Source: Clostridiales bacterium
GTDB taxonomy: Bacteria > Bacillota > Clostridia > Christensenellales > CAG-138
Direction of reading: 5' to 3'
NCBI GenBank assembly: GCA_009783775.1
Contig: WRCT01000001.1
Location: forward strand, 1 to 48,567
DNA length: 48,567 nt
The notes beneath the pieces were generated by a model. It did no database searches and had not been told where the DNA came from. It saw only the letters and a program-made list of their open reading frames with translations. How positions within the stretch are numbered: the stretch's first letter is position 1; the number at the start of each line of letters is the position of its first letter. The position numbers and the translations under genes were made by a program. Of the stretch, positions 4,236-45,725 are shown piece by piece.

Positions 4236-4385
4236 AAGTAATAAGGAATGGGGAATAAGTAATAATGTATGTGAAAACAGCTCCGCTGTTTTTTCATTTT
4301 ATATACAGGCAACCCATCATTTGTGCGCCAGCACACCTCCATTATTACTTATTCCTTATTACTTATTCCTTATTATTTATTCCTT
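4236..4385. repeat. heptad-armed hairpin element, copy 1
   Basis: Left arm AAGTAAT AAGGAAT GGGGAAT AAGTAAT (4236-4263). Hairpin GAAAACAGC-tcc-GCTGTTTTTTC (4273-4295). Box TGTGCgccaGCACA. Right arm ATTACTT ATTCCTT, 6 units (4344-4385). Confidence 0.9.
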
Positions 4386-4850
4386 CAGTCGGCAGACGTC
4401 CACCCACCCCGCCACATTCTCAGCCAGGGATTCGAGTTCGGCGAGGGTCAGGCGCACGCAGCTGTTGCCGCTGCCGCAGGCGGGGTAGACACTGTCAAAG
4501 CGGGTCAGGGACTGGTCCAGCCAGACCGCAACCTCGGGCAAGATTGCAAAGGGGCAGACGCCGCCCACCGCGTGGCCGATGTGCTGTTCCACCTCAGGCG
4601 CCGAGAGCATGGTCGCCTTGCAGGCGAAGGTGTCGCGGAATTTCCGGTTGTCCACCCGCGCGTCTCCCGCTGCCACGACAAGGATTGGTTTGCCTCCGAC
4701 CCAAAAGGACAGGGACTTGGCAATGCGCGCGGGCGCAACGCCCAGCGCCTCCGCCGCCAACGCGACGGTCTGGGTAGGTTTTTCAAATTCAACAATTTGG
4801 GGCGCTACTTCCCGGGTCAGAAAGTAAGCGCGCACTTTGTCTATTGACAT
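4377..4850 (-). CDS. YbaK/EbsC/ProX-family aminoacyl-tRNA editing (deacylase) protein
   Basis: 157 aa. KSLSFWV ... ILVVAAGDARVDNRKF ... GHAVGGVCPF pattern. GGAGGA RBS. The last codons and the TAA lie inside the heptad arm. Confidence 0.7.
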   Translation of the reverse strand: MSIDKVRAYFLTREVAPQIVEFEKPTQTVALAAEALGVAPARIAKSLSFWVGGKPILVVAAGDARVDNRKFRDTFACKATMLSAPEVEQHIGHAVGGVCPFAILPEVAVWLDQSLTRFDSVYPACGSGNSCVRLTLAELESLAENVAGWVDVCRLKE

Positions 4851-4861
4851 ATATCCTCCAA

Positions 4862-4970
4862 ACTACAACCTACAATTGAGGAGACGGGCGCTTGGCGCCA
4901 CCCGTTTTTTATCATATCAAATGATAGAAAACTGTAGAGCAGTTTTTTCTTTCATTGTACATTGTACATT
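4862..4970. repeat. heptad-armed hairpin element
   Basis: ACTACAA CCTACAA arm. GC hairpin with a T-run (4883-4910). The box ATCAAATGATAGAAAAC runs into the hairpin AAAACTG-tagag-CAGTTTT (4928-4950). TTGTACA x2 arm (4955-4968). Confidence 0.85.
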
Positions 4971-5408
4971 CACGATCTCCCCCAGCTCCCGAACCGCGTT
5001 CAAAAAGGGCGTGTCGCGGTCCTTTAAGGCGGCCAGCACGCGGTAGGGCCCTTGCAAGACTTCCAGCACGCGAGCTTGAAAGGCAAGGGCGTCGGATTCC
5101 AAAATGCCCAGCTCGTCCATCAGCACCAGCGCGCCCGACGGGATATCCGAAAGCAGGGCCAGACCCAGGCCGTCGAACACCTCGGGGTGGGGACGGGCCA
5201 GGCGTTTTTCCGTGGAGATCAGATCGCCGATTCGATTTGTCTCCCCCATTTGCCGCTCTTTGTCACCGGCGGCGTAGAGATAGATATGGCCGTCGTCCTC
5301 CTTGCGCGTGACAAAGCCGTAAACCGGCCCGCCAATCTCTCCGGCCAGCTTTTGGATATAGGTGCTTTTGCCGCTGCCGCTCGGGCCGCAGACGAGGATG
5401 GGTTTCAT
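4917..5408 (-). CDS. THEP1-like nucleoside-triphosphatase (P-loop)
   Basis: Walker A GPSGSGKST and Walker B LVLMDELG. About 160 aa. No SD; leaderless-type promoter. The C-terminal ~18 aa are encoded by the repeat element. Confidence 0.55.
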   Translation of the reverse strand: MKPILVCGPSGSGKSTYIQKLAGEIGGPVYGFVTRKEDDGHIYLYAAGDKERQMGETNRIGDLISTEKRLARPHPEVFDGLGLALLSDIPSGALVLMDELGILESDALAFQARVLEVLQGPYRVLAALKDRDTPFLNAVRELGEIVNVQCTMKEKTALQFSII

Positions 5409-5415
5409 GTCGGCA

Positions 5416-5424
5416 ATTATATCA
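5416..5424 (-). promoter_or_regulatory. extended -10 promoter giving a leaderless mRNA
   Basis: Minus strand: TGaTATAAT, then 7 nt, then ATG at 5408. No Shine-Dalgarno in between. Confidence 0.5.
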
Positions 5425-5431
5425 CAAATAA

Positions 5432-5459
5432 TTGCCAGACGCCAGATTCCAGTTGCCAG
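5432..5459. repeat. heptad array (TTGCCAG ACGCCAG ATTCCAG TTGCCAG)
   Basis: Four exact-period 7-bp units, directly abutting the terminator hairpin at 5460-5484. Confidence 0.85.
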
Positions 5460-5484
5460 AAAAAAAGGGACGCATGAACGTCCC
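5460..5484 (-). terminator. intrinsic terminator of the SurA-like lipoprotein gene
   Basis: Minus strand: GGGACG-ttcatg-CGTCCC followed by TTTTTTT. Confidence 0.7.
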
Positions 5485-5531
5485 TTGATACTATATCCCG
5501 CGTGAGCGGTCCGGAATCCGGTGTCCGGAAG

Positions 5532-6884
5532 CTATCTCCCGACCATTGCGTAATTCTCGGGGTAGTACACGACGACCTTTTGGGCCTCCTCCAGCCAGTC
5601 GCTTTGACGCTGGCCCCAGACGACGTCCTGACGCTCGAGCAGGGCGGCGGCCGTCGCCGCTTCCAGTACGTCTTTGAGCGGCACGGGGCCGGCGGGCAGG
5701 ATTTCAATGAGCTTGACGATGTAGAAGGTGCCTTCGATTTCGATGATATCGGAGAAGGCGCCCGCCTCCAGTTCCGCCGCCGCGCTCCACACCGCCTCCG
5801 GCACGGAGGGGTCGGTCTCGGTCAGGTAGAGATAGCGAATGTCTTTTGCCTCGTCCTTGTTGTACTTACCCATAATCGCGTCAAAGTCCGCGCCTTCCTC
5901 GGCCAGCTCCGCCGCGGCCGCGTCGGCCTTGGCTTTGGGGCCTTCGGCGAAGGTCTCATACAGCGCGTCCGTGTCAGCCTTGAGCTGCGCGTACTCGTCG
6001 CGAATCTCCTTGAGACGATCCGCGTCCGCGCCGCCCGCGAGCATGAGCTTGCCGTATTCGGCCTCCAGCTTGGCCATCGTTTCCTTGCCCGTGGTATAGG
6101 ACTCGTCGACCTCTTCCTCGGACGCAATGGTGATCAGCGCGATTTTGGCGAAACCCTCGGGCACGGTCAGCGCGGGCAGGGTGGAAAAGCCTTGCTCGAA
6201 CTGCTGCATATAGGCCTTAAAGTCAACGGGCGCTTCGGCGAAAGCCTCCTCATGCGCTTTGAGCTCGCCCTCGTACCAGGCCTTGACGTCCTCGTCGGAG
6301 ACGGTCACGTCCAGGGCGACCTTGCCCTGCACCGCCTCGGTGAGCACCTGGTTGATCATGTCCTTTTTATAGTCTTCCAGATACTTGTCCAATGACATCT
6401 CGTCACCGTAATATCCCTTGATCTCCTCGTCGATCAAGGCCAGCGCGGCCTCTTCCAGCTCGGCGGGGTCGGTTGTTTCCTCGCCGACCAGGGTCATGTA
6501 ATAGTCGATGATATCCTGCCGCTCGCCGGCGATGATATCGTCGATCTCAGCCAGCTGCACGTTGGTGAGGGTCACGCCCATTTCCTCCGCCTTCCAGAGA
6601 ATGGCGTAGTTGGCGAGCATTTGGTCGAGCGCCATCTGCACATACTCCGCGATCTCCGCCTCGTCGGTGGGCGCGGGCATACCGTACTGCTGCATATAGC
6701 CGATGAACCCGTTATAGGCCGCTTCCAGCTCGCCGACCGTGGCGACAAGGTCGCCCAGCTTAAACGCGGGCGCGTCGGGATCTAATTTGGGTTTGTCCGC
6801 GTCCTTGTTCTTGTTGCAGGCCAGCAGGCCAACGACCAATACGGCCGCCAGGCAGAGAATGCAAATTTGCTTAAAAGTCTTCAT
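5532..6884 (-). CDS. SurA N-terminal domain / PrsA-like foldase lipoprotein
   Basis: Start at ATG 6884 (MKTFKQ, AAGGAAAA upstream). Lipobox LLAC. Acidic, helical SurA-like body. The conserved position downstream of mfd in Clostridia was recalled from memory. Confidence 0.6.
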   Translation of the reverse strand: MKTFKQICILCLAAVLVVGLLACNKNKDADKPKLDPDAPAFKLGDLVATVGELEAAYNGFIGYMQQYGMPAPTDEAEIAEYVQMALDQMLANYAILWKAEEMGVTLTNVQLAEIDDIIAGERQDIIDYYMTLVGEETTDPAELEEAALALIDEEIKGYYGDEMSLDKYLEDYKKDMINQVLTEAVQGKVALDVTVSDEDVKAWYEGELKAHEEAFAEAPVDFKAYMQQFEQGFSTLPALTVPEGFAKIALITIASEEEVDESYTTGKETMAKLEAEYGKLMLAGGADADRLKEIRDEYAQLKADTDALYETFAEGPKAKADAAAAELAEEGADFDAIMGKYNKDEAKDIRYLYLTETDPSVPEAVWSAAAELEAGAFSDIIEIEGTFYIVKLIEILPAGPVPLKDVLEAATAAALLERQDVVWGQRQSDWLEEAQKVVVYYPENYAMVGR

Positions 6885-6931
6885 GTTTTGTTTTCCTTTC
6901 GGGCGCACAGTTTAGGCGCACATTGCGGGTC

Positions 6932-7076
6932 TCCCTTTAAAAGCGTTAGGAGATTGGTGAGGATTTTTTGTCGCAGGCGCGGAGCAGGCGTGATACGTAG
7001 CAGGCGGCCTACGTTGAACGACGGCGACAATGTCGGCGGCAAAAAAGACCGCCAAGGTGCAACGCTTTTAAAGGGA
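6932..7076 (+). mobile_element. 145-bp TIR (MITE-like) element, copy A
   Basis: Perfect 16-bp terminal inverted repeat, TCCCTTTAAAAGCGTT / AACGCTTTTAAAGGGA. About 85 percent identical, by eye, to the reverse complement of 11138-11284. Confidence 0.8.
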
Positions 7077-7100
7077 AACCCGCATAAGACACCAATTACA

Positions 7101-10568: not shown

Positions 10569-11125
10569 TTGCTGTTGAATTTGGCCTGGGCGGCGTCCAG
10601 CTTGCCCGCGAGAATCAGGGTCACGGCCTCGGCCGCGCGATCATAGGTCGTGGCGAGAATCTTTTGCTCGTCCTTGCCGGGGCGTTTTAAGACATAGTCG
10701 CGCAGCTGCAGGGAGGTATCCTGCCCGACGCCGATGCGCACGCGCGGGAAGTTCTCCGTGCCCAGGTGGGCCAGAATACTGCGCATACCGTTGTGTGAGC
10801 CGCCGGAGCCATGGCCGCGCACGCGCAGCGCGCCCACGGGCAGGGCCACGTCGTCATAGAGCACGATCAGATTTTCCGGCGGAATCTGATAGTAGCGCAG
10901 GGCCTGGCCGACCGCGTCGCCGCTGAGGTTCATATAGGTTTGGGGCTTGAGCAACAGCACCTTTTTTCCGTCGACGGTGCCCTCGCCCGTTAAGGAAGAA
11001 AACTGTTTTTTCTTTATGGAGATACGCGCCAACTCCGCGAGTTTGTCCAACGCCAAAAAACCCGCGTTGTGGCGGGTTTTGCGATAAGAGAGGCCGGGGT
11101 TGCCAAGTCCAACAATGAGATACAT
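10565..11125 (-). CDS. pth: peptidyl-tRNA hydrolase
   Basis: MYLIVGLGNPG ... TRHNAGF ... GHGSGGSHNGMRSI is canonical Pth. Confidence 0.95.
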   Translation of the reverse strand: MYLIVGLGNPGLSYRKTRHNAGFLALDKLAELARISIKKKQFSSLTGEGTVDGKKVLLLKPQTYMNLSGDAVGQALRYYQIPPENLIVLYDDVALPVGALRVRGHGSGGSHNGMRSILAHLGTENFPRVRIGVGQDTSLQLRDYVLKRPGKDEQKILATTYDRAAEAVTLILAGKLDAAQAKFNSK

Positions 11126-11137: not shown

Positions 11138-11284
11138 TCCCCCATTAAAACATTGTATCTTGGCGGCCTTTTTTGCCGCCAGCTTTGTCGCCGTCGTTCA
11201 ACGTAGGCCGCCTGCTACGTATCGCTCCTGCTCCGTGCTGGCGGCAAAAAATCCTCACCAATCTCCTAATGCCTTAATGGGAGA
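11138..11284 (-). mobile_element. 145-bp TIR (MITE-like) element, copy B (inverted relative to copy A)
   Basis: The reverse complement aligns with 6932-7076 along its whole length. Its own TIR is CCCATTAAAACATT / AATGCCTTAATGGG. Confidence 0.8.
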
Positions 11285-11909: not shown

Positions 11910-12108
11910 CGTCATTGCGGACTTGATCCGCAATCTCAGTTAGTATTGGGATTGCGGGTCAAGCCCGCAATGGGAATCGCTGATTAACGCAATTCCCGCG
12001 TAGGGGCGGCTATTAGCCGCCCGCGAAACCGCCTGTTTACGCACGTTATGCGGGCGATTGATAATCGCCCCTACGCGAACGGGTACTTAATCAGCGATTC
12101 CAATGACG
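11910..12108. repeat. 199-bp nested composite palindrome built from REP-like and GTAGGGGCG units
   Basis: Outer pair CGTCATTG / CAATGACG. 15-bp inverted repeat GGAATCGCTGATTAA (11973-11987) / TTAATCAGCGATTCC (12087-12101). REP units at 11910-11937 and 11948-11974. GTAGGGGCG units at 12000-12022 and 12052-12074. Confidence 0.85.
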
Positions 12109-12430: not shown

Positions 12431-12458
12431 GAGATTGCGGATCAAGTCCGCAATGACG
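12431..12458. repeat. REP-like hairpin unit
   Basis: GAGATTGCGGA-tcaag-TCCGCAATGACG, between two minus-strand genes. Confidence 0.85.
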
Positions 12459-15869: not shown

Positions 15870-17180
15870 ATGTCGAAACAAGTCAATAAAAGAAAAAGAA
15901 TCAAGGGAAAGCGACTGCCCGCGAAACCGCTGCGCCCGCTTTTGGAGAGCATACTGGTCTTTTGGCGCGGTAAGCTGAGGACAAAATACGGTCTGACGGT
16001 GGACCGCGAGGCCCTGCGCGGCGTGAAACCGCCCTTTATTGTGGTGTTCAACCATGTGGGCGATGACGACCAGTTTGTCGCGGGCACCGCGCTGCACCCC
16101 GTTATGCCCAACTACATGATGTCCAACTGGGCGGAGCACAGCTTTCCGCTGGCGCCGCTGTCGAAAGTGGCCGGCGCGATCCACAAGATCCGTTTCGTGC
16201 CGGACGTGCGCGCGGTCATGGCGGCCAAGCGCGTGCTCAAGGAACGCGGCGGCGTGGTCGGCGTCGCGCCCGCAGCCAGCTATTCCATCGACGGCACGCC
16301 CAGCTATTTCGACTACGGCATCGCAAAGTTCTGCAAGATGTTCAAGGTGCCCGTGTTCGCCCTGCGCATGGACGGGCTGTATTTCTTCCACAACCGCTTT
16401 TCGGGGCGGCAGCTCTGCAGGCTGCACGGCGCGGTGACCCGCGTGTTTGACGGGCCGGAACTTAAGGACATGGCGACCGAAGAGGTTTACAAACGCCTGT
16501 ACGAGGCCTGCGATTTCAACGACTTTCAATACCAGCGCCGCGTGATGGCGCCCGTGATCGCCAAAGACGACAACCTGGCCGAGGGCATGGAGTATGTGGC
16601 CTATCGCTGCCTGCGCTGCGGGGCCGAGTTCCAAACCGAGGGCAAGGGCAATGTTTTAACTTGCTCAGCCTGCGGCAACGCCCTGCGCGTGAACCGATAT
16701 TATTTCTTCGAGCCCCATTCCTCGCCCTGCGCCTGGGTGGAGGAGCTGAACCAATGGACGCAGTTCCAGCGGCAGCTGGTGGCCGAAGAGATCGAAAAAG
16801 AGGATTTTCATATCAGCTGCGACTGCGCGCTCTATCGGTTTACCGAGGGCAAGAAATACGGCGTGACGCGTTACGGGCGGGGCAGACTGCGCCTGGACGC
16901 CTCGGGCTTTACCTATACCGGCACGGACAAGGACGCGGGCGTAACCTATCATCACCCTCTGGCGGACACCTATTATGTGGGCAACGACACCCGCGTGTAT
17001 CTGAGCGTGGACACGCCCAAGCGCAGCTATCAGTACCGGCTGGACAATATGAAGATGGGCGCGAAATACCTGCTGGCCCTAACCGCGCTGCGGGAGAAAT
17101 ACCATCCCTACTTCCCCGACGAGGCGGAGTGGCGGCGGGGGCTGGTTACGAATACCGAATTTACAATTCATAATTCATAA
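15870..17180 (+). CDS. PlsC/LPLAT-family acyltransferase-like protein with C-terminal zinc-ribbon region
   Basis: Motif FNHVGDDD (HX4D block). GVAPAASYSIDG block. CLRCG..CSACG pair. The stop TAA lies in the heptads ATAATTC ATAATTT. Confidence 0.6.
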   Translation: MSKQVNKRKRIKGKRLPAKPLRPLLESILVFWRGKLRTKYGLTVDREALRGVKPPFIVVFNHVGDDDQFVAGTALHPVMPNYMMSNWAEHSFPLAPLSKVAGAIHKIRFVPDVRAVMAAKRVLKERGGVVGVAPAASYSIDGTPSYFDYGIAKFCKMFKVPVFALRMDGLYFFHNRFSGRQLCRLHGAVTRVFDGPELKDMATEEVYKRLYEACDFNDFQYQRRVMAPVIAKDDNLAEGMEYVAYRCLRCGAEFQTEGKGNVLTCSACGNALRVNRYYFFEPHSSPCAWVEELNQWTQFQRQLVAEEIEKEDFHISCDCALYRFTEGKKYGVTRYGRGRLRLDASGFTYTGTDKDAGVTYHHPLADTYYVGNDTRVYLSVDTPKRSYQYRLDNMKMGAKYLLALTALREKYHPYFPDEAEWRRGLVTNTEFTIHNS

Positions 17181-17183
17181 TTT
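17163..17183. repeat. heptad array (ACAATTC ATAATTC ATAATTT)
   Basis: Three 7-bp units overlapping the last codons and stop of the acyltransferase gene, followed by an A/T-tract hairpin. Confidence 0.7.
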
Positions 17184-17192
17184 GGTGACAAG

Positions 17193-17221
17193 AAAAAACT
17201 GCCCACAGCGGGCAGTTTTTT
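17193..17221. terminator. bidirectional intrinsic terminator
   Basis: AAAAAA-CTGCCC-acagc-GGGCAG-TTTTTT, between convergent genes. Confidence 0.85.
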
Positions 17222-17224
17222 CGC

Positions 17225-17272
17225 GGGCGGCTATTAGCCGCCCCTACGCGTAGGGGCGATTATCAATCGCCC
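17225..17272. repeat. pair of GTAGGGGCG-family hairpins (inverted pair)
   Basis: GGGCGGC-tatta-GCCGCCCCTAC, then cg, then GTAGGGGCGAT-tatca-ATCGCCC. The same two stems recur at 12000-12074. Confidence 0.85.
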
Positions 17273-17280
17273 GCTATCAT

Positions 17281-19779: not shown

Positions 19780-20319
19780 ATGGATTTGAAAGGGAGCAAA
19801 ACGGAACAGAACCTGATGACGGCCTTTGCGGGCGAGTCTCAGGCGCGCAACAAGTACACCTACTATGCCTCGGCCGCACGGAAAGAGGGCTTTGTGCAGA
19901 TCGGCGATCTCTTTGAGGAGACGGCAAACAACGAAAAGGAACACGCGAAGATTTGGTTCAAGCACCTGCACGGCGGCAGCGTACCGAACACGGCCGCGAA
20001 TCTGGCGGACGCGGCGGCGGGCGAGAACTATGAGTGGACCGAGATGTACGCGGGCTTTGCCAAAGAAGCGCGGGCGGAGGGATTTGATCAGATCGCGGCC
20101 CAGTTTGAGATGGTCGCCAAGATCGAAAAAGAGCACGAGGCGCGCTACCGCAAGCTGCTGGCGAACGTCGAGGGCGGCGAGGTCTTTATAAAAGGCGATG
20201 TGCAGATTTGGGAATGTTCCAACTGCGGCCACCTGCACGTGGGCGACCGCGCGCCGGAGAAGTGTCCGGTTTGCGCGCACCCGCAGGCGTACTTTATGAT
20301 CCGGCCCGTCAATTATTGA
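19780..20319 (+). CDS. rbr: rubrerythrin
   Basis: [19 protein letters not shown] ... EKEHAKIW diiron site, plus C-terminal CSNCGH..CPVCAH. Confidence 0.9.
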
Positions 20320-20324
20320 CGGAA

Positions 20325-20569
20325 TGTACAATGTACAAACTACAAACTACAATTGTGGTAACGGGGCATTCTGCCCCGTTTCTTATTTGATAAATTTTAC
20401 AAATTTTGTGCAACCTTTTTTCACAATATGTGGTATTATGTATATGTTGTATGGCTATAATTTGTGTGTAATGCTAAAAATAAAGAAAAACACAGAGTGT
20501 TTTTTTCCTCAATTGTAGTTTGTAGTTTGTACATTGTAGTTTTTTGTATTGTAGTTTGTAGTTTGGAGA
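20325..20569. repeat. TIR-bounded heptad element with AT-rich core
   Basis: Left arm TGTACAA x2 ACTACAA x2 (20325-20352). Right arm TTGTAGT/TTGTACA units (20513-20569). The innermost ~32 nt of each side, including the CAATTG[A/T]GG junction, are reverse complements of each other. The core holds a GC hairpin, ~95 bp of AT-rich DNA and the hairpin AAAAACAC-aga-GTGTTTTT. Confidence 0.85.
20361..20389 (+). terminator. intrinsic terminator after rubrerythrin
   Basis: ACGGGGC-attct-GCCCCGT followed by TTCTTATTT. Confidence 0.65.
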
Positions 20570-20573
20570 AAAT

Positions 20574-21266
20574 ATGGAACAAAGCCCTGCCGGCCCATTC
20601 ATCGACATTCGCGGCGTGACAAAGGTCTACCATGTGGGGGACGTGGATGTGCACGCCCTGCGCGGCGTGGATTTGCAGATCAAAAAAGGCGAGCTTTGCT
20701 GCATTGTCGGGCGCAGTGGCTCGGGCAAGTCCACCCTCTTGAATGTGCTGGCGGGTTTGGAGCGCGTGACCGCGGGCGAGATCACCATCGCGGGCCAGCG
20801 TTTGGACAAAATGTCCGAGGCCGAGATGATTTTGTTTCGGCAGAAATATGTGGGGTTTGTGTTCCAGTCCTTTAACCTCATGCCCTACTACACCGCGCTG
20901 GAGAATGTGGCCTTTCCCCTGTCGTTTCGCGGTATGCCGCAAAAGGAGCGCAACGCGCAGGCGTTGGATATCCTGACGCAAATGGGTTTGGAGACGCACC
21001 AGCGCCACAAGCCGGCGCAGCTCTCCGGCGGACAGCAGCAGCGGGTGGGGATCGCGCGCGCGCTGGTGGGGCGGCCCGAGCTGGTCTTTGCGGACGAGCC
21101 CACGGGCAACCTGGACTTTGCCACAAGCGATGAAGTCATGCACAGCATTCGGGATATCTGTAGAGCGCAGAACAAGACGCTGATCATGGTCACGCACGAT
21201 CAGCATATCGCGGAGTTTGCGGACCGGACGATTCAGTTGTTGGACGGGAGAGTAGTGGACAGTTGA
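20574..21266 (+). CDS. ABC transporter ATP-binding protein (MacB/LolD/FtsE-like)
   Basis: Walker [10 protein letters not shown]. Signature LSGGQQQRV. Walker B LVFADEPT. The RBS GGAGA is a degenerate heptad. The stop TGA lies inside the GACAGTT array. Confidence 0.9.
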
Positions 21267-21389
21267 CAGGGGACAGTTGACAGTTGAGGAAAAAACAGCT
21301 CTGCTGTTTTCTATCATTTGATAAAATTAAAAACGGGCGGCGCAGGCGACCGTTACCACAATTGTAGTTTGTACATTGTAGTTTGTAGT
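21258..21389. repeat. intercistronic heptad-armed hairpin element
   Basis: Arm GACAGTT GACAGGG GACAGTT GACAGTT. Hairpin AAAAAACAGC-tct-GCTGTTTT. The box GTTTTCTATCATTTGAT starts in the hairpin's 3-prime arm. A second GC hairpin. Arm TTGTAGT TTGTACA TTGTAGT TTGTAGT. Confidence 0.9.
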
Positions 21390-21410
21390 TTGAAATAACG
21401 GGAGGATGTT

Positions 21411-22812: not shown

Positions 22813-22947
22813 AACCGCGAAACACGCAAGCGGTAGCGGTATCCGTCATTGCGGGCCCCGACCCGCAATCTCTCTGCTTTATTTGCTCAGAGATTGCGGA
22901 TCAAGTCCGCAATGACATAAAAAGAGGCTTTCGTGTTTTTCGCGGTT
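22813..22947. repeat. composite BIME-like element: outer ~19-21-nt imperfect inverted repeat enclosing two inverted REP units
   Basis: AACCGCGAAACACGCAAGC / GCTTTCGTGTTTTTCGCGGTT enclose CGTCATTGCGGG..CCCGCAATCTC (22844-22872) and GAGATTGCGGA..TCCGCAATGACA (22890-22917). Confidence 0.85.
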
Positions 22948-28108: not shown

Positions 28109-28217
28109 TAGAGTGGAGTGTTGAGAGTTGAGAGTTGAGCGAAGGAAATAACGGCTCCGCCGTTATAATTGTAGGGGCGGCCTGTGGTCGCCCATCCTTA
28201 ACTCCACTCTCAACACT
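28108..28217. repeat. heptad-armed hairpin element with embedded GTAGGGGCG unit
   Basis: Arm ATAGAGT GGAGTGT TGAGAGT TGAGAGT TGAGCGA. Hairpin ACGGC-tcc-GCCGT. GTAGGGGCG-gcctgtggt-CGCCC (28171-28193). Arm ACTCCAC TCTCAAC. Confidence 0.8.
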
Positions 28218-29576: not shown

Positions 29577-30746
29577 ATGGATAATGCAAAAACAAACAAA
29601 ACCGACACAAGGATAAGGATCGCCATCTTATCCTTGTGTTTTATCGTGGTGGTTTATCTGGTTCCGGCCGTGGCGATGAACGGGATCTTGGCCGCCTTCC
29701 CCGGCGTTTCGGAAAACACCGTCATGCTCATGCTGTCCCTGCCGAATCTGACGGGGCTGGCGGGCATACTCATCGTGCCGGCCGTACAAAAATGGCTGAC
29801 CTATAAGGCGCAGAGCCTGCTGGCGATGGGGCTGCTGCTGGTCAGCGGGACCCTGTCCCTTGCGCTGGCGGACAGCCTGCCCCTGCTGATAACCATGGCC
29901 GGACTGCTGGGTTTTGCCTACGGGGTGCTGGCGACGACCTATCCGCTGCTGGTCGGGCTGCATTTTTCGGGCACGGCGCGCGCCTTTATGATGGGCGTGG
30001 CGGCGGGAGTGCTGCAGCTGGGGCGGCTGGTGATTGCGCTGCTGGCCGGATTTTTGGCGGATATCCGCTGGAATTATATTTACTTCACCTTTGTCTTTGT
30101 GGCGGCCGCCTTTGTAATCGTGCTGCTTCTGCTGCCGAACGCGCGGGCGCTGCCGCCGGTCAAAACCGAGAAGAAACGCGCGCCGCTGTGGAAAAACGGG
30201 GAACTGGTCCGGCTCTGCCTGCTGGGGCTGCTGTTCACCGTTCTTTACTATCTGACCGTCACGCATATCTCGCTCTATGTGGAGGGCGGCGGTTTGGGCA
30301 CGGCGGCCACCACGGGCATGGCAAACGGCGTGGGATTGGTCGCCGGCGTGGCGATGTCGTTTTTGTTTTCCAAGCTCTTTCGTTTTACGGGCAAGGCCAC
30401 GCTTGCCGTCGCGTTCGGGTTGCTGGGGCTGGGTTATCTCTGCTGCGGCTTTTTCGTGAACCTGCCCGCCCTGCTGGTGGGATTGATCTTTGCCAACCTG
30501 GGCATGGGCCTGGCCGCCCCATATTTTATGCTGCGCGGCGGCTTGGTCGCGCCGGGCGCGGAGGGGCCGGCGATGGCCGTGCTGCTGGTCTTTATCAACT
30601 TCGGCTACTTTTGCTCGCCCTATATCTCTACCCTGCTGTCCGGCGGCGCGCCCTTGGCTTTTCTGTATTTTGGGCTCGTGGCAGGAGTGGTTGGCGCAAT
30701 TCTGGCGGCAAGCCGAATTGCACAAGGAATAAGTAAGAAGGAATAA
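29577..30746 (+). CDS. MFS transporter
   Basis: 389 aa, about 12 TM. The stop TAA and the last codons (ISKKE) are encoded by the AAGGAAT/AAGTAAG heptads. Confidence 0.75.
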   Translation: MDNAKTNKTDTRIRIAILSLCFIVVVYLVPAVAMNGILAAFPGVSENTVMLMLSLPNLTGLAGILIVPAVQKWLTYKAQSLLAMGLLLVSGTLSLALADSLPLLITMAGLLGFAYGVLATTYPLLVGLHFSGTARAFMMGVAAGVLQLGRLVIALLAGFLADIRWNYIYFTFVFVAAAFVIVLLLLPNARALPPVKTEKKRAPLWKNGELVRLCLLGLLFTVLYYLTVTHISLYVEGGGLGTAATTGMANGVGLVAGVAMSFLFSKLFRFTGKATLAVAFGLLGLGYLCCGFFVNLPALLVGLIFANLGMGLAAPYFMLRGGLVAPGAEGPAMAVLLVFINFGYFCSPYISTLLSGGAPLAFLYFGLVAGVVGAILAASRIAQGISKKE

Positions 30747-30860
30747 GTAATGGTGGAGGTGTGCTGGCGCACAATGAATACGCCGCCAAATCATATAAAA
30801 GAAACTGCCGTTGGGCAGTTTTTTCATTCACTATTACTTATTCCCCATTCCTTATTACTT
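30724..30860. repeat. heptad-armed hairpin element, copy 2 (core inverted relative to copy 1)
   Basis: Arm AAGGAAT AAGTAAG AAGGAAT AAGTAAT. Box GGAGGTGTGCTGGCGCACAATGA. Hairpin AAACTGCC-gttg-GGCAGTTT. Arm ATTACTT ATTCCCC ATTCCTT ATTACTT, abutting the proS stop. Confidence 0.9.
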
Positions 30861-35911: not shown

Positions 35912-35938
35912 CGTCATTGCGGACTTGATCCGCAATCT
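35912..35938. repeat. REP-like hairpin unit
   Basis: CGTCATTGCGGA-cttga-TCCGCAATCT, between the inserted ORF and parC. Confidence 0.85.
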
Positions 35939-39484: not shown

Positions 39485-39540
39485 GTAGGGCGGGGGCGGG
39501 CGTTCGCCGTTTGCCGCGTAGGGGCGAACTGTGTTCGCCC
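39485..39540. repeat. two GTAGGG(G)CG-family hairpins in direct orientation
   Basis: GTAGGGCGGGGGCG..CGCC and GTAGGGGCGAAC-tgtg-TTCGCCC, in the parE 5-prime region. Confidence 0.8.
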
Positions 39541-41210: not shown

Positions 41211-41270
41211 CACTTTTTTGAAAAATAATTTTTTTGAACATTTGTAAGGTCGCGTGAACGGTTGTAATAC

Positions 41271-42584
41271 TTATCCTTCAATCGAACGGCACTCCAGGTA
41301 ATAGCGTTTCTCGTTCGCTTCGCCCATGGAGAAGGTCTTGCGCGGCAGTGCGCCGTCGACCACCACGGTGCGGAAGAACTCGTCCTTGCGCATGGCGGGC
41401 AAGGTGAACCCGATCGCCCCGCCGCGCGCGGCCAGCTTTTCCACCACATCCGCGCCGTGGATATAGTCCACCTCACTGCCCGACAGCTCGGGCAGCAGCG
41501 CGTCGATCGCGTTCTGCAAGGTGCCGACCGCCAATTGCTGCGTTGGCGCCGTTACAACGAACGCGCCGGATTCTTTATCCGTTACAAACGGCAGGACGTG
41601 ACTGTAGGGGCCGACGCCCCCGGCGGCCCGTTGGATTTCGCAACCGCCATTTTGTTCCGCTAATTTTGCCTGTAAGCGGGGGACGATGTCGTCGGTGTTT
41701 ACCCCAAAGAGCACACGGTGAATGGGCTCGAACACAATGCCCTTATCGTGCACGTTTTCGACTTCGACCAGCGCCCAGCGGGCGGGGTGCGTTTCGCGCT
41801 GCTCGGCGGACAGTCCCTGCTTGATCTGTTCCCAGTTGGCCTTTGCCGTGGCGAAACTGTGGTTGCCGTCGCCCATCGCAAAGAGCATGGGCGGCCGGTC
41901 GCCGTATTTTTCGGCGAAGGCGGCGGGGTCGTCAAGCGCGGTCAATGCGTCCAGCACGTTTTGAATCTTCGCGGGATCGTCCACCAGCCAGCCGGTCACG
42001 TGCCCGCCGTCCATCATCAGGTCGGCGTCATACAGCTGAGACAGGTCGGCCGCGTCCGCGTAAAGCGGCTCGATCACGGTCCGGTCCGGATCGTCGATCA
42101 ATACCAATATATGCGGCAGCTCGACGGTCGCGCCTGCGCGGATACGCAGTCGGGGCGGAATGCGGTCGACGATCGTGCCCTCGGTGGCGCGGATTAAAGT
42201 CGTCGACCCCTTGCTGTAGTCGTATTCCTCCAGGTCCAGCGCCAACACCAGGCCCAAGCGAGTATTGCCCGCCGCCTCGCGCCGCACCAGCACAAAGCCC
42301 TGCGGCTGCTTGCAAAGCACGCCGTTTGCCACAAAGCCGCGCATATTGGCGCGGATCGCCGCAATCCGTTCGTCCTCGTCGGGTTTGCCCAAATAGGCCT
42401 CGGGCAGGAAGATGTCCAGCGTGGAAGGGGAGTCGCCGATGAACGCGCGCGCCGCCTCCCAGTACTCGGGCTCTGCGGTGAACTGGTCGCAAGCGACGAC
42501 GGCCCATTTGGAAACGTCGATCTCGGGCGCGGGCAGCAGCACTTCGGGCACCAGCACGCCGACACGATTGGAATAAGAATTCAT
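41271..42584 (-). CDS. DUF1015-family protein
   Basis: 437 aa. WAVVACDQFT ... LIRATEGTIVDRIPPRLRIR ... resembles the DUF1015/COG4198 pattern (from memory). Confidence 0.7.
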   Translation of the reverse strand: MNSYSNRVGVLVPEVLLPAPEIDVSKWAVVACDQFTAEPEYWEAARAFIGDSPSTLDIFLPEAYLGKPDEDERIAAIRANMRGFVANGVLCKQPQGFVLVRREAAGNTRLGLVLALDLEEYDYSKGSTTLIRATEGTIVDRIPPRLRIRAGATVELPHILVLIDDPDRTVIEPLYADAADLSQLYDADLMMDGGHVTGWLVDDPAKIQNVLDALTALDDPAAFAEKYGDRPPMLFAMGDGNHSFATAKANWEQIKQGLSAEQRETHPARWALVEVENVHDKGIVFEPIHRVLFGVNTDDIVPRLQAKLAEQNGGCEIQRAAGGVGPYSHVLPFVTDKESGAFVVTAPTQQLAVGTLQNAIDALLPELSGSEVDYIHGADVVEKLAARGGAIGFTLPAMRKDEFFRTVVVDGALPRKTFSMGEANEKRYYLECRSIEG

Positions 42585-42632
42585 TTAACACCTACTTATG
42601 CAGCATTTATACATTGTATATATATTTGAAAC

Positions 42633-42661
42633 ATTATAGAGGAGTCTTCCCATAAAAGCAA
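42633..42661 (-). promoter_or_regulatory. sigma-A type promoter for the DUF1015 gene
   Basis: Minus strand: TTGCTT, 17-nt spacer, TATAAT. Confidence 0.6.
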
Positions 42662-42718
42662 TAGGAAGTTCAGATAATTTACAGTTTTTATCACTGAATA
42701 TTTTTTCAGCAGTTCGTA

Positions 42719-44536
42719 TCAAGTAATTCGGACGCCGTAAATCTTCTGCCCGCGCGTGCCGACGACGATCATATCGCCAAAGGCGGCGGGTGTGGATTCG
42801 ATCGCTTTCTCGCCCAGGCGGATCTTATCGAGCAGCACGCCCGTCTTGCCGTCTAAGAGATACATCCAGCCGTTCGTATTGCATTGGATCAGATAGGCCG
42901 TGCCGTCCTCCGTATAGATCGCGGCCGTGGAGGACCAGGTGAACCCGCCCAAGTCAAAGTTCCATACCTCGCGGCCCGTCTGTTTGTCCAGCGCGACGAG
43001 CAGGCCCGTGCCCTTGCCCGGCGTGCGCGCCAGCGGCATGATGACCAAATCGGAGATGTTTCCCTGCCCCACCAGCGCGGTGGCCTGCGACCCGCCCGAA
43101 ATGCCCTCCGCCGTGTAGCAGGTGTAGTCCGTGCGCCAGATCACCTCGCCCGTCGAGGCATCGATCTTCCAGATCGGGATCGGCGCGGTCTTGTCCATCG
43201 CCGCCCGCCAGCCGCCGTGGAAGGAGGTCGAGATATACAGATAGCCCCGCCCGTCCGGTTCGATCTCCAGCACGGGCGTGCTGTTCGTGTCGTCCAACGT
43301 GTCCTGCACCCAAACGACCTGCATGGTGTTCAGATCCACGCACATCAGGTGCCCGCCGTTGTCCGCGACATATAGAAAGTGTTTCCAGATCACGCTGCTG
43401 CTCTCAATGCCCAGCCAAAACTTCTTAATCCCGTGCTTGCGCGAGCGCTCCGTCGTATAGGCCATCTGCACCATATCGGAGGGCGCGATGCTCACCGTGC
43501 CCGCAGCGGGATCGTAGTGGCTGTTTAGTTTGACGGTATAGATCACGCCGTCCTCGCCGCAGGTGATCAGCGTGTCGGTGCCCGTGTCGACGAGCGGCGC
43601 GCAGTCCCAGCCCGTCCAGTTGCGGAAGGCAAACTTGTTCTTGCGTCCGAACTCATAGAGCAGCTGCTGGTCGATTAAGGAATAGATACAAAAGCGGGAG
43701 TCCGCCTTCTTGCCCGGCGTGTCGTCGCCGCCCGAGCCGACATACAGCAACGGATAGCCGCGCGAATCCACGGTAAAGCCGCCCATATGGTCGCGGTCAT
43801 AGTTGTTGCCCCGACTTTGGTAGACGTCGATCTTCAGCTTGGGGCGGGTCGGCTTGCCGTCGGCCAGATCCAAGAAGTAGGCGTAGCCGTCCATCAGCGC
43901 GTAGATGACTTCGACCAGCCCGTCCTTGTTTTTCTTATCGGGTTCCAGGTTCATTTGCCGCCGCGTCTCCTCCGGCCACTGTACCAGGATCGGCTGGCCC
44001 GTCCAGCCGCTGCCCGTCCAGCGCGCCATGCCCGAGGTATTGGTCTCCCAAACCAGGCTCAGCTTTTTCTGCGTGACCTCGACTGTGCCGAAAGAGGACA
44101 TATTGCGGTAGTTATTGCCGCGAAAAGTCGTAACCCCCGCCAGGGCCGTATAACCGTCCGGCGCGCCGAAATGAATGCTCTCCGGACGGGTGTAGGCCCC
44201 AACCTCTGCCCCGTCCACACTGATCTTGGTCTCAAACCCGAAGTCGCTGGGCCGCGTGCCGTCGATCGGCGCGGGCAGCGGCATTTCTGTCTCGGGCGTC
44301 GGTTCCGGCGTGGGCAGGGCGGACGGCGCGGTTTGCGCCTGCGGGGAATCCTGCGACGGGCGCGTCTCGATCCCGACCCGCTCCGCCGGTCGCGCGGTGG
44401 CCTGCGTTTCGGGTACTTCCGGCTTGGGTTCGCCCAAAAGACTTATCGCAAGAAGGCCCAATCCAACCCCAACCGCCAGCGAAAGCGCGATAAGAAAGAA
44501 CCCCGGGACACGTTGTTGTTTTTTTCTGTTTCTCAT
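42719..44536 (-). CDS. membrane-anchored PQQ-like beta-propeller repeat protein
   Basis: N-terminal TM. P/E/T linker. Repeated (G).V.W motifs: MQVVWVQD, GEVIWRTD, GREVWNFD. Confidence 0.6.
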   Translation of the reverse strand: MRNRKKQQRVPGFFLIALSLAVGVGLGLLAISLLGEPKPEVPETQATARPAERVGIETRPSQDSPQAQTAPSALPTPEPTPETEMPLPAPIDGTRPSDFGFETKISVDGAEVGAYTRPESIHFGAPDGYTALAGVTTFRGNNYRNMSSFGTVEVTQKKLSLVWETNTSGMARWTGSGWTGQPILVQWPEETRRQMNLEPDKKNKDGLVEVIYALMDGYAYFLDLADGKPTRPKLKIDVYQSRGNNYDRDHMGGFTVDSRGYPLLYVGSGGDDTPGKKADSRFCIYSLIDQQLLYEFGRKNKFAFRNWTGWDCAPLVDTGTDTLITCGEDGVIYTVKLNSHYDPAAGTVSIAPSDMVQMAYTTERSRKHGIKKFWLGIESSSVIWKHFLYVADNGGHLMCVDLNTMQVVWVQDTLDDTNSTPVLEIEPDGRGYLYISTSFHGGWRAAMDKTAPIPIWKIDASTGEVIWRTDYTCYTAEGISGGSQATALVGQGNISDLVIMPLARTPGKGTGLLVALDKQTGREVWNFDLGGFTWSSTAAIYTEDGTAYLIQCNTNGWMYLLDGKTGVLLDKIRLGEKAIESTPAAFGDMIVVGTRGQKIYGVRIT

Positions 44537-44587
44537 AAAAACCCTCTAATGTGTTATTCTATCACACTATTGACATAATGTATAAGG

Positions 44588-44654
44588 AAAATACAGCCTG
44601 TTTTTATCTTATCCACACACTGCCCACTGTCCACTGTCCACTGTCCACTGCTCA
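44588..44654. repeat. degenerate A/T hairpin + heptad array (CTGCCCA CTGTCCA x3 CTGCTCA)
   Basis: AAAATACAG-c-CTGTTTTTA, followed by exact period-7 units at 44620-44654. In the spo0A upstream region. Confidence 0.8.
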
Positions 44655-44704
44655 CATTCGCTCTTATTCGAGAAAAACGCACTCTAACGGATTTGCCCCG
44701 CCGA

Positions 44705-44713
44705 TGTTATACT
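44705..44713 (+). promoter_or_regulatory. candidate extended -10 promoter for spo0A
   Basis: TGtTATACT about 48 nt upstream of the ATG. A 0A-box-like TTCGAGA (TCTCGAA on the other strand) lies at 44667-44673. Confidence 0.35.
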
Positions 44714-44760
44714 GTGCCCAGGTTGAAAGTGCGCCGGGGGCGTGATGGAGGAAGAGATAA

Positions 44761-45540
44761 ATGCAGAAATATAAAGTATTGCTGGTGGACGACAACGCGC
44801 CCTATGCCGAGATGATGAGAGGCTATTTGATTTCACAGGAACAGATCGCGGAGGTCGATATGGCCGCGGACGGCAAGGAGGCCATCGCGCGTTTGCGGGA
44901 CAAGCAGTACGATGTCATGACCCTGGATCTGATCATGCCGAACATGGACGGGCTGTCCGTGTTGGAGCAGGTCCCCCTGCTCTGCGGCGCGGCCGCGCCC
45001 GCCGTGGTCGTCATCTCCGCGCTGCGCAACGAGACGATGGTCCGCCGCTGCTGCGCGATGGGCGCGCGCTATTATATGGTCAAGCCGGTGGAGCCGGATA
45101 TGCTCTACCAGCGTTTGGTGCAAATGCTCGACAACGAGCAAATAAAGGGCGGGGTCCTGCCCTATGCACAGGCGCCCAAGTCCTTCGACGAGAAGGTGAC
45201 CGCCATCTTTTTGGTCGCGGGTATTCCGGCGCATATCAAGGGCTATCACTACCTGCGCGAGGGGATCAAAATGGTCTACCGCGACTGCGAGCTGATCAAC
45301 CGGATCACCAAGGAGCTGTACCCGGGCATTGCCAAGCGGTTCAACACCAGCGCCAGCAAGGTCGAGCGCGCCATCCGCCACGCCATCGAGGTCGCCTGGA
45401 CGCGCGGCAAGATCGAAAACCTCAACGCGCTCTTTGGCTACAACATCTACGGCAAGAACGACAAGCCGACCAACGGCGAGTTCATCGCCCTGGTCGCGGA
45501 CAAGCTGCTGATGGAGGAACAGGCGCGCAAGGCAGGATAG
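44761..45540 (+). CDS. spo0A: sporulation master regulator Spo0A
   Basis: Receiver domain (VLLVDDN ... [14 protein letters not shown]). Spo0A-specific C-terminus: [16 protein letters not shown] ... [15 protein letters not shown]. Confidence 0.95.
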
Positions 45541-45725
45541 ATTCCAGACGCCAGATTCCAGACGCCAGATTCCAGACGCCAGATTCCAGACTCCAGATTC
45601 CAGACTCCAGATTCCAGACTCCAGATTCCAGATTCCAGATTCCAGATTCCAGGCTGTAAGGAAAAAACAGCAGAGCTGTTTTCACAATAATTGTACATTG
45701 TACATTGTAATTTGTACATTGCACA
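45541..45725. repeat. largest heptad-armed hairpin element: 16-unit array + hairpin + 5-unit array
   Basis: (ATTCCAG ACGCCAG)x3 (ATTCCAG ACTCCAG)x3 ATTCCAG x4, at 45541-45652. Hairpin AAAAAACAGC-aga-GCTGTTTT. TTGTACA TTGTACA TTGTAAT TTGTACA TTGCACA, at 45691-45725. Confidence 0.95.

Follow-up and report, generated by a model that had tools for sequence, protein, structure and literature searches.

Heptanucleotide Tandem Arrays Flanking Terminators in the Intergenic DNA of an Uncultured Clostridiales Bacterium

A 48,567-bp stretch of the Clostridiales contig WRCT01000001.1 (assembly GCA_009783775.1), called the window in what follows, carries tandem arrays of imperfect 7-nt units in its intergenic DNA. 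The arrays flank transcription terminators and abut stop codons and ribosome-binding sites (RBSs), the two arrays of an element are usually inverted repeats of one another, and arrays are homologous between loci together with adjoining hairpins. They are members of the known heptameric class of long simple-sequence repeats (LSSRs) or short tandemly repeated repetitive sequences (STRRs). Their abundance here probably reflects a lineage-specific bloom, in which slippage-prone heptamer arrays have filled unconstrained intergenic gaps, spread along with hairpin and promoter modules, and been homogenized.

Period-7 Arrays in Intergenic DNA

An initial annotation of the window described ten loci at which exact period-7 repeats adjoin an A-tract/T-tract hairpin. 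Tandem Repeats Finder (TRF) calls period-7 arrays at all ten (Table 1), although the array at 30724-30750 is scored as period 14. The curated set comprises 17 arrays of 2.6 to 16.3 units, located in 10 of the approximately 30 intergenic regions of the window; all are intergenic, with gene overlap limited to terminal codons. A scan for lag autocorrelation, requiring at least 17 matches in 21 nt, found nine genuine period-7 segments and one poly-G run, where the periods from 4 to 13 otherwise gave zero to three segments each. Period 14 gave six segments, which represent alternation of two words. Shuffling in 100-nt blocks produced a mean of 0.01 period-7 arrays, against the nine segments observed. 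Thus the arrays are a real and nonrandom intergenic family, but to call them exact was an overstatement: TRF matches range from 71% to 100%, and two or three word variants alternate in most arrays. Three arrays, at 4859, 4953, and 17165, are short (2.6 to 2.9 units).

The words fall into six families: A, AAGKAAT; B, TGTACAA/ACTACAA; C, AYKCCAG; D, GACAGKK; E, TGAGAGT; and F, AATTCAT. Each family has four to five constant positions and two to three variable ones, and examples of the resulting arrays are (TTGTAGT)n, (AAGGAATAAGTAAT)n, and (ATTCCAG)n. Five families are seen in both orientations, and F was found once (17165). The word had been described as differing even between the arms of one element. 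The arms are mostly reverse complements, and CTGTCCA at 44618 is simply the reverse complement of the GACAGTG/GACAGTT family at 21258. The 16-unit C array is built of the blocks (ab)3 (ac)3 a4, as slippage by 7 and 14 nt at a time would be expected to produce.

Relative to a stop codon, nine arrays either start in the interval from 23 nt inside to 3 nt beyond it or occupy the final codons of an open reading frame (ORF); five end 8 to 24 nt before a start codon, at the RBS. The remainder are situated between divergent promoters or have a terminator on one side and a promoter-like site on the other. The arrays occupy exactly the sequence that is free to vary, flanking terminators. Because the stop codon of the window's ABC ATPase falls within the D array, the protein exceeds its 86%-identical homologue by two residues. 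A similar placement is seen elsewhere: of 108 arrays in 44 unrelated metagenome loci, 24 have their start within -30 to +10 nt of a stop codon that faces them, compared with 8 of 110 random intergenic placements. The genes next to the arrays are housekeeping genes, including ybaK, ridA, proS, spo0A, and those for the ABC ATPase and rubrerythrin.

Inverted Arms and Enclosed Hairpins

The left and right arms of an element are usually inverted repeats, a symmetry that had gone unnoticed. Arms are complementary in five of the seven two-armed elements: 4235-4273/4334-4372 (element R1), 30724-30755/30829-30860, 28124-28146/28195-28217 (R8), 20327-20361/20504-20538 (R5, 94% over 35 nt), and the short pair formed by the arrays at 4859 and 4953. 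The inverted arms are 23 to 39 nt long and 81% to 94% complementary, and a word found 5′ of the hairpin recurs 3′ of it as the complement. Complementarity is absent from the pairs C/B′ (45539/45690) and D/B′ (21254/21361), and three further arrays lack a partner.

When folded as single strands, the elements form helices of 24 to 37 long-range pairs that enclose the terminator hairpin or hairpins, with z scores from -5.9 to -9.2. The calculated energies are -46.9 kcal/mol for R1 (4228-4390, minus strand; z -5.9), -56.5 kcal/mol for R8 (z -6.7), and -85.9 kcal/mol for R5 (20318-20572; z -9.2), which has 37 long-range pairs and a stretch of up to 29 uninterrupted pairs. The A/A′ element at 30724-30860 folds with z -6.9.

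The core hairpins proposed for the ten loci are present, but not uniformly so. A strict scan for A-tract, stem, and T-tract found ten hairpins in the window, seven of them adjoining arrays; the hairpin at 28148 lacks A and T tracts, that at 5465 has its only U-tract on the minus strand, and that at 44586 is weak. Arrays and such hairpins tend to share intergenic regions: arrays occur in 7 of 8 hairpin-bearing intergenic regions versus 3 of 22 others (Fisher p = 4e-4). Sequences with the features of terminators lie at 4273, 4930, 5465, 17197, 20487, 21294, 30803, and 45668, after stop codons or between convergent genes. The copies at 4270-4295, 21292-21310, and 45661-45686 are nearly identical. 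In the main, however, the core hairpins appear to be ordinary A-tract/U-tract intrinsic terminators, mostly nonhomologous, that align on their A and T tracts. The ten loci are accordingly better described as mostly unrelated terminators plus heptamer arrays than as one conserved structured element.

Homology between Loci

Array-plus-hairpin modules are repeated between loci. The element at 4236-4385 is a copy of 30724-30860 in reverse orientation. The A′ arm at 30832-30860 is identical in 29 of 29 positions, as its reverse complement, to 4236-4264, although the arms within each A element are just 81% to 85% complementary. An internal stretch of 51 nt is 94% identical between the two (4321-4371 versus 30774-30724).

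A second pair consists of R2 (4852-4975, minus strand) and R7 (21250-21400), which align over about 100 nt. Each runs from a terminator through a TATCA-TTTGATA box that has an extended -10-like TGATAnnAT to a second hairpin and a B′ array, and they differ in the left array, B in R2 and D in R7. The 17-nt box that had been reported from these two sites is exact in both, with zero occurrences expected; it lies one base away from the positions first given, at plus-strand 4916-4932 and minus-strand 21306-21322, and the copies share far more than the box. A unit consisting of a B array, TTG(T/A)GG, and an ACGG-hairpin is present in three copies and in both orientations, and the C arrays at 5435 and 45544 have an 18-nt two-word string in common. 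The arrays were evidently not born independently at each locus; rather, modules appear to have been copied between intergenic regions.

Arrays in Relatives and Other Genomes

Comparison loci and contigs carry labels of the form L001 or L203. The nearest species representatives, uncultured rumen and gut Clostridia, have Spo0A proteins 76% to 81% identical to that of the window. No period-7 arrays were found in the spo0A loci (6 to 21 kb each) of L001-L013, where Spo0A is 70% to 81% identical, nor in L202, and a relative at 86% protein identity has no array after its ABC-ATPase gene. In L001, L003, and L006 a conserved RNA-like motif follows the spo0A stop codon by 30 to 110 nt. In the window, 185 nt comprising a C array, a terminator, and a B′ array are interposed between spo0A and this motif, and the cassette is evidently an insertion relative to the other species.

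Spo0A was the sole window protein with a relative of at least 90% identity, which led to L203 and L204; a second contig was sought through the exact protein clusters of ten further window proteins, and none was found. The spo0A genes of L203/L204 are 84% identical in nucleotide sequence to that of the window, and neither the C array nor the D′ array is present. At the site orthologous to B′, immediately before the conserved motif, L203 does have an array, with the word TTGTCAA in place of TTGTACA. L203 also has a second stop-array-terminator unit, with the word GAAAGNN. Comparison of orthologous regions, proposed at the outset, showed variation in presence or absence between relatives and revealed no unit-number polymorphism in three sequence pairs, none of which includes a true sister strain of the window.

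The arrangement recurs in other genomes. An inverted ATTGACA/TTGTCAA pair surrounds a terminator in Firmicutes bacterium ADurb.Bin248, one stop-array-terminator unit is present in Paenibacillus sacheonensis, and arrays are also present in L022. The family B pattern occurs in at least 120 metagenome contigs, which belong to unrelated organisms, with G+C contents from 0.31 to 0.69, many of which carry several other heptamer words; among the matches listed, about 18% of the metagenome arrays have an inverted partner within 400 nt.

In one contig, L126 (WNFU01064603.1, G+C 0.68), a heptad inverted pair at about 1640-1740 lies in frame inside rsmA/ksgA, where it contributes some 32 residues (LGARDWGLGASTNSQAPSPWPLAPGPWPLAPG) immediately ahead of the YKVVANLPYAITS motif, which is conserved. 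The case indicates that heptad palindromes can sit within protein-coding genes, as Rickettsia palindromic elements do. L121 (7953-8155 and 9876-10035) was noted along with it.

Origin and Possible Function

A bloom of heptamer arrays could have proceeded as follows. A seed of two units would expand and contract by slipped-strand mispairing, in steps of 7 and 14 nt, and the array would grow until it met a constrained element, whether stop codon, terminator stem, promoter, or RBS. The array and its adjacent hairpin or promoter-like module would then be copied between intergenic regions. The result would be a mosaic cassette, composed of array X, terminator, in some cases a box with extended -10 and a second hairpin, and array Y, whose halves could be exchanged at the shared hairpin core. 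Concerted evolution would homogenize the word within an array, and orthologous arrays could consequently differ in word. Because X and Y are usually reverse complements, the cassette amounts to a long palindrome that extends the terminator stem. A read-through transcript would form a near-perfect duplex, such as the longest helix of R5, and by analogy with the hmw hairpin of Haemophilus influenzae this duplex is a likely substrate of RNase III. Cleavage would uncouple or destabilize the read-through RNA.

Several observations weigh against such a bloom as a full account. The sample is small, 48.6 kb of one genome. Domain searches of the window revealed no transposase, no REP-associated tyrosine transposase (RAYT; Y1_Tnp), where REP stands for repetitive extragenic palindrome, and no other candidate copying enzyme. 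There is no target-site duplication at the two A copies, whose flanks are CTG/ACG and CAC/TCA. The end of the window is base-for-base identical over 6.66 kb, including two arrays, to L081, which may come from the same sample, and the two do not differ in unit number; L203 and L204 differ by two single-nucleotide polymorphisms and no indels. L098 (1019-1047) and L159 (8364-8392), two gut-metagenome contigs, share an identical 29-nt array, TTGTACTTTGTACATTGTAAATTGTAAAT, between flanks that are 87% identical, which suggests that this array is constrained. (It lies immediately upstream of the start codon of a gene whose product begins MEELKHECGVA and by eye is PurF-like.) The arrays may be less hypermutable than pure slippage predicts, and perhaps constrained. 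Persistence of an array at an orthologous site in the relative with 84% nucleotide identity likewise hints at selection. Finally, sense and antisense folds show no consistent G:U asymmetry; the strands fold about equally, so that pairing is favored neither at the RNA level nor at the DNA level.

The signs of constraint would be accommodated if the inverted arms were selected RNA structures, acting as a 3′-end stabilizer, a reinforced terminator, or a site of processing or insulation, with copy number tuning function as in hmw. This proposal is possible but doubtful. Complementarity of the arms is maintained in five of seven two-armed elements despite a change of word at each locus, the predicted folds are very stable, the arms of R8 surround two hairpins, with a U-rich tract after them and the next promoter beyond it, and the L098/L159 array is unchanged despite 13% divergence of its flanks. 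The array retained by L203 and the experimental precedent of hmw (PMC12721329) point in the same direction. Yet palindromic DNA yields equal fold scores whatever its function, and no strand bias of G:U versus A:C is seen. The C/B′ and D/B′ pairs cannot form such structures, nor can the three arrays that are without partners. A promoter-like region lies inside the R5 helix, so the main transcripts would carry one arm each, and close relatives run the same genes without arrays. One variant of the idea, autoregulation of RNase III through the gene after the R1 element, was rejected, since that gene is ridA and the Mini-III-like ORF lies further downstream.

That the elements are nonautonomous mobile elements, such as MITEs (transposable elements of the miniature inverted-repeat type), REP doublets forming hairpins (REPINs), or Correia elements, with heptads as terminal inverted repeats and a transposase encoded elsewhere in the genome, seems unlikely. 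The dimensions (about 140 to 250 bp), inverted termini, and intergenic location of the elements are appropriate, and the two near-identical A copies, at unrelated loci, are oppositely oriented. Modules are found in either orientation, two families of REP-like hairpins are also in the genome, and the in-frame pair within rsmA of another organism recalls the Rickettsia palindromic elements. The missing target-site duplication and the absence of transposase or RAYT from the 48.6 kb count against mobility of this type. Moreover, arm length and word vary and the arms are freely recombined, which is unexpected for a transposase that recognizes defined ends.

It is quite improbable that the arrays are multivalent protein-binding sites, either for a nucleoid or promoter factor at the DNA level or for an S1-, Csp-, or CsrA-type translational regulator at the RNA level, as has been proposed for TAACTGA repeats (PMC4679880). 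Words recur at several loci, with the constant and variable positions noted above, and several look like -35 hexamers, as family D does with TTGACA and other words do with TTGTCA, TTGCCA, and TTGTAC. B′ arrays end directly at the RBSs of three genes, a placement also reported for the TAACTGA repeats of Beggiatoaceae and for Nostoc heptamers. At least six unrelated families within 48.6 kb would, however, require many factors or one that is very degenerate; an orthologous array has changed its word, species that share the flanking genes do without arrays, and no candidate binding protein has been identified. Three more specific roles failed on inspection of the words. Families B and C contain no stop codons, which rules out a supply of stops in all three frames. 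Family B lacks GGA motifs of the CsrA type, which families A, C′, D, and E have. The resemblance of TGTACAA to the Spo0A 0A-box, TGTCGAA, was judged a coincidence, as the central CG is lacking.

A more speculative proposal, to which little probability attaches, treats the elements as portable intergenic cassettes that carry a terminator and sometimes a promoter and 5′ hairpin, with arms generated and matched by a dedicated lineage-specific activity and acting as programmable complementary tags. If this were true, read-through transcripts with both arms would be marked as double-stranded RNA for cleavage, a form of genome-wide transcriptional insulation, and the excess of 7-nt repeats across prokaryotes would have its first mechanistic explanation.

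The single conserved element originally envisaged, of RNA or DNA, in which a covarying stem is under selection between variable heptad arms, is very unlikely. Alignment of the hairpins gives 93.8% of cells paired and a covariation score of 0.46, higher than in all 500 shuffles, but the test is largely circular because the hairpins were picked by eye for being hairpins. Among homologous copies there is one true compensatory pair, a U:A to A:U change between 4930-4944 of R2 and 21294-21308 of R7. Most of the others are the unrelated terminators described above. Array-free relatives have hairpins of the same type at a density of 0.79 per 10 kb, and in the window itself three such hairpins, at 11061, 24319, and 45847, stand without arrays. 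Nor is there a match in Rfam: the window gives none at the gathering score, and at E of at most 1 the matches are just chance hits of microRNA precursors to the long hairpins and a thiamine pyrophosphate (TPP) riboswitch elsewhere. An assembly or sequencing artefact, which might be suspected because this is a short-read contig of a metagenome-assembled genome with a 20-G run near its end, can be dismissed almost with certainty, as the second assembly record (L081) is identical, the arrays (at most 114 nt) are shorter than a read pair, the six families contain ordered variants, and the same architecture is found in many independent assemblies.

Of itself, the finding leaves existing knowledge unchanged; it extends the heptamer phenomenon to uncultured Clostridia and documents an association with terminators. 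The contig is valuable as a compact and legible example, with six word families placed between stops, terminators, and RBSs. The contrast between array-rich and array-free genomes opens a search for genes that co-occur with arrays, and opens a test of RNase III-type processing.

Features of the Window

The window is core chromosome of a spore former, with a G+C content of about 59% and AT-rich intergenic DNA. Its genes include spo0A, gyrase/topoisomerase subunits, mfd, pth, lgt, proS, ybaK, and ridA, as well as genes for an ABC transporter, cell-wall proteins, and SH3-repeat proteins; no tRNA or tmRNA genes were found. Table 1 collects the arrays and the hairpins, boxes, and promoter-like sites beside them.

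Table 1. Arrays, Hairpins, and Associated Sites of the Window (TRF call, coordinates of the period-7 call; MFS, major facilitator superfamily)
Position	Strand	Feature	Units	TRF call	Context
4235..4265	plus-strand reading	Family A array TAAGTAAT AAGGAAT GGGGAAT AAGTAAT	4.4	4235-4265	Stops 14 nt before ridA start (3840-4220, minus); 3′ arm of R1 on minus strand
4273..4293		Terminator hairpin GAAAACAGC-TCC-GCTGTTTTT, A-tract/T-tract			Between ybaK and ridA
4321..4340		Internal box TTGTGCGCCAGCACACCTCC			Reverse complement GGAGGTGTGCTGGCGCACAA also at 30755-30774
4342..4385	plus-strand reading	Family A array ATTACTT/ATTCCTT	6.3	4342-4385	9-nt overlap with ybaK stop codon; 5′ arm of R1 on minus strand
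4859..4878		Short family B array CAAACTACAACCTACAATTG; minus reading TTGTAGG TTGTAGT			8 nt before ybaK start, directly at RBS
4884..4910	+	Hairpin ACGGGCGCTTGGCGCCACCCGTTTTTT			Homologous to 21329-21354
4911..4949		Box ATCATATCAAATGATA, then hairpin GAAAACTGTAGAGCAGTTTTTTC; minus-strand extended -10-like TGATATGAT in box			Part of ~100-nt module common to 21288-21360; 52 nt at 86.5%
4938-4911	minus	Promoter-like site			
4953..4970		Family B array CATTGTACATTGTACATT	2.6	4953-4970	Annotated NTPase ORF (4917-5408, minus) reads through array and hairpin; array in last codons
5433..5460		Family C array TGCCAG ACGCCAG ATTCCAG TTGCCAG	4	5433-5460	24 nt upstream of NTPase start
5465..5486	-	Intrinsic terminator AAGGGACGTTCATGCGTCCCTT, then T-run			
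17165..17182		Family F array AATTCAT	2.6	17165-17182	Overlaps stop codon of 15870-17180 gene
17192..17222		Bidirectional terminator GAAAAAACTGCCCACAGCGGGCAGTTTTTTC			Two REP-2 hairpins follow (17219-17274)
20323..20353		Family B array TGTACAA x2, ACTACAA x2		20323-20353	3 nt past rubrerythrin stop; 5′ arm of R5
20360..20388	+	Terminator AACGGGGCATTCTGCCCCGTT, then T-rich tail			
20486..20507		Hairpin GAAAAACACAGAGTGTTTTTTTC			Directly before right arm of R5
20513..20565		Family B′ array TTGTAGT/TTGTACA	7.4	20513-20565	3′ arm of R5; 8 nt before ABC-ATPase start, at RBS
21254..21287		Family D array GGACAGT TGACAGG GGACAGT TGACAGT		21254-21287	Contains ABC-ATPase stop codon, 13-nt overlap
21288..21360		Module: terminator GGAAAAAACAGCTCTGCTGTTTTC, box TATCATTTGATA (extended -10-like TGATAAAAT), hairpin AAAAACGGGCGGCGCAGGCGACCGTT			Homologous to 4884-4949, opposite orientation
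21361..21392		Family B′ array TTGTAGT/TTGTACA	4.6	21362-21392	18 nt before start of 21411 gene
28110..28139		Family E array AGAGTGG AGTGTTG AGAGTTG AGAGTTG		28110-28139	1 nt past NlpC/P60 stop; 5′ arm of R8
28148..28193		Hairpin ATAACGGCTCCGCCGTTAT, then REP-2-like hairpin GTAGGGGCGGCCTGTGGTCGCCC			Both within E arms
28195..28217		Family E′ arm TCCTTAACTCCACTCTCAACACT			Upstream of YkuD-gene promoter-like site TTGATA-17-TATAAT
30724..30751		Family A array AAGGAAT AAGTAAG AAGGAAT AAGTAAT		30724-30750	Encodes last 7 codons and stop of MFS gene
30755..30825		Box GGAGGTGTGCTGGCGCACAA, then bidirectional terminator AGAAACTGCCGTTGGGCAGTTTTTTC			Between convergent MFS and proS genes
30833..30860		Family A′ array ATTACTT ATTCCCC ATTCCTT ATTACTT			Terminates exactly at proS stop codon
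44586..44608		Weak A/T hairpin GGAAAATACAGCCTGTTTTTATC			Missed by strict hairpin scan
44618..44655		Family D′ array CACTGCC CACTGTC x3 CACTGCT		44618-44650	Between divergent PQQ-repeat and spo0A genes, just upstream of conserved spo0A promoter block
45539..45652		Family C array (ATTCCAG ACGCCAG)x3, (ATTCCAG ACTCCAG)x3, (ATTCCAG)x4	16.3	45539-45652	Begins inside spo0A stop codon
45660..45684		Terminator GGAAAAAACAGCAGAGCTGTTTTC			Near-copy of the 4273 and 21288 hairpins
45690..45725		Family B′ array TTGTACA	4-5	45690-45725	Directly upstream of structured RNA-like motif 45727-45826

The RNA-like motif downstream of spo0A, at 45727-45826 on the same (plus) strand, is conserved in a clade of uncultured Clostridia, with copies in L203 (1726-1825) and after the spo0A genes of L001-L007. 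It consists of two hairpins around an invariant single-stranded stretch of 21 nt, AAUGCCCCAACCUCAUAAUCC, and 12 of its 29 predicted pairs show compensatory changes among nine sequences. It has no Rfam match and may be an undescribed small RNA or 3′-untranslated-region element with a C-rich motif resembling an anti-Shine-Dalgarno sequence.

Other repeats are dispersed in the window. A REP-like family of the form GTCATTGCGG-(loop)-CCGCAATGAC/CTC lies at 3350-3377, 3397-3426, 11910-11938, 11950-11972, 12431-12458, 22843-22872, 22890-22916, and 35912-35938, several copies being 100% identical over 27 to 30 nt. A second, CGCGTAGGGGCG-(loop)-CGCCCGC, lies at 11997-12028, 12050-12077, 17219-17274, 28171-28193, 39513-39527, and 46078-46105; it is often in inverted doublets, and one copy is inside R8. 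A 111-nt repeat, 91% identical, is found in two intergenic regions, 6946-7056 and, inverted, 11159-11269. The first copy is flanked by a 24-nt inverted repeat (6924-6947/7061-7084), and the repeat may be a MITE or a small RNA. A 27-nt tandem repeat (3238-3296; 2.2 copies, 96% matches) lies near the start of a SpoU methylase gene, and the run of 20 G residues is at 76-95, near the contig start.

The TPP riboswitch, at 1560-1677 on the minus strand, is a probable one. Its score of 45.8 bits (E 7e-6) is below the Rfam gathering score of 54.3, and it lies upstream of a gene for a ThiT/YuaJ thiamine transporter (832-1467). At 3427-4220 on the minus strand, two long ORFs overlap in different frames. 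The ORF at 3840-4220 is a Rid-family gene (157 bits), whereas that at 3427-4143 has a Ribonuclease_3 domain in its C-terminal half only, and a shorter Mini-III-like ORF that ends at 3427 is probably the true gene.

Comparison with Known Repeat Systems

The initial annotation was right to separate the elements from CRISPR (short palindromic repeats that are clustered and regularly interspaced), in that the units are 7 nt, spacers and repeats of 25 to 40 nt are lacking, and no Cas domains are found in the window, and from classic REPs, there being no conserved palindromic unit in the heptad elements and no RAYT domain in the window. Its view that the repeat class had not been described does not hold, as intergenic tandem heptamers are catalogued (Mrazek 2007, in the summary given by PMC4679880). 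According to the same summary of Mrazek et al. 2007, heptamers are the most abundant long simple-sequence repeat. They are reported as the commonest intergenic tandem repeat of prokaryotes, with function and the reason for period 7 unexplained and polymerase slippage proposed (sources include the SPADE survey, Mori et al. 2018). The window has the characteristics of LSSRs: head-to-tail 7-nt units beyond chance, often imperfect, strongly intergenic and confined to noncoding DNA, and sporadic and lineage-specific in abundance. It differs from them in having many word families in one short region, mostly in inverted pairs around terminators, and in the copying of arrays between loci with hairpin and promoter-like modules. 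A literature search returned no report of heptamer arrays in Clostridia/Firmicutes or beside terminators.

The GGGAATC repeat of Xanthomonas forms about 185 intergenic arrays of 2 to 26 units (Rehm et al. 2015, PMC4692102), and two genomes each have 70 to 75 convergent array pairs capable of forming stem-loops or cruciforms (PMC4692102). Like the arrays of the window, these lie near start or stop codons, and their length varies between species; the word "terminator" is absent from that paper (PMC4692102). Xanthomonas GGGAATC and Nostoc GGGGAYT each use one G-rich word that can form G-quadruplexes, whereas the words of the window are AT-rich, of at least six kinds, and form none. The cyanobacterial STRR heptamers, reportedly described by Mazel et al. 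in 1990, are said to comprise several words per genome and to be intergenic, genome-wide, and of no known function. They differ from the arrays of the window in phylum and in words. An STRR report from Calothrix is mentioned in the heptamer literature.

TAACTGA repeats are found in marine Beggiatoaceae, Cyanobacteria, and Bacteroidetes, in patchy lineages (MacGregor 2015, PMC4679880). They lie a few nucleotides upstream of start codons, as do the B′ arrays at 4859, 20513, and 21361, but they use a single word, include one inverted set among 169, and have no tie to stop codons or terminators (PMC4679880).

The only experimentally worked-out mechanism by which a heptamer array pairs with a complementary arm is that of hmw. 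There the transcribed 5′-untranslated (ATCTTTC)n array is one arm of a long RNA hairpin that is cleaved by RNase III and is required for change in repeat number (PMC12721329). In hmw just one contingency locus is concerned, its phase variation by copy number is proven, and the right arm is a nonrepeat, G-rich segment (PMC12721329). The window, by contrast, has many loci beside housekeeping genes, with arrays as both arms, and the sequences compared did not differ in copy number. The arrays do not fit the pattern of phase-variable contingency loci, in which a simple-sequence repeat in the promoter or 5′-untranslated region of a surface or virulence gene switches copy number within a population.

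Repeats able to carry terminators or promoters and to form RNase III substrates include MITEs, REPINs, bacterial interspersed mosaic elements, Correia elements, and Rickettsia palindromic elements. The elements of the window resemble them in being small, noncoding, palindromic, dispersed in intergenic DNA, and mosaic in their modules. They have the terminal inverted repeats of MITEs but lack fixed consensus ends and, at the two A copies, target-site duplications; no associated transposase is seen, and the arms are arrays of variable words. As to multiple copies, the 48.6 kb hold two A copies and two of the R2/R7 type, with arms exchanged between copies. The core hairpins are most like bidirectional Rho-independent terminators, with an A-tract, a short G+C-containing stem, a loop of 3 to 6 nt, and a T-tract. 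What distinguishes them from ordinary terminators is the company of the arrays and the existence of three near-identical copies, which would be unusual for terminators of independent origin.

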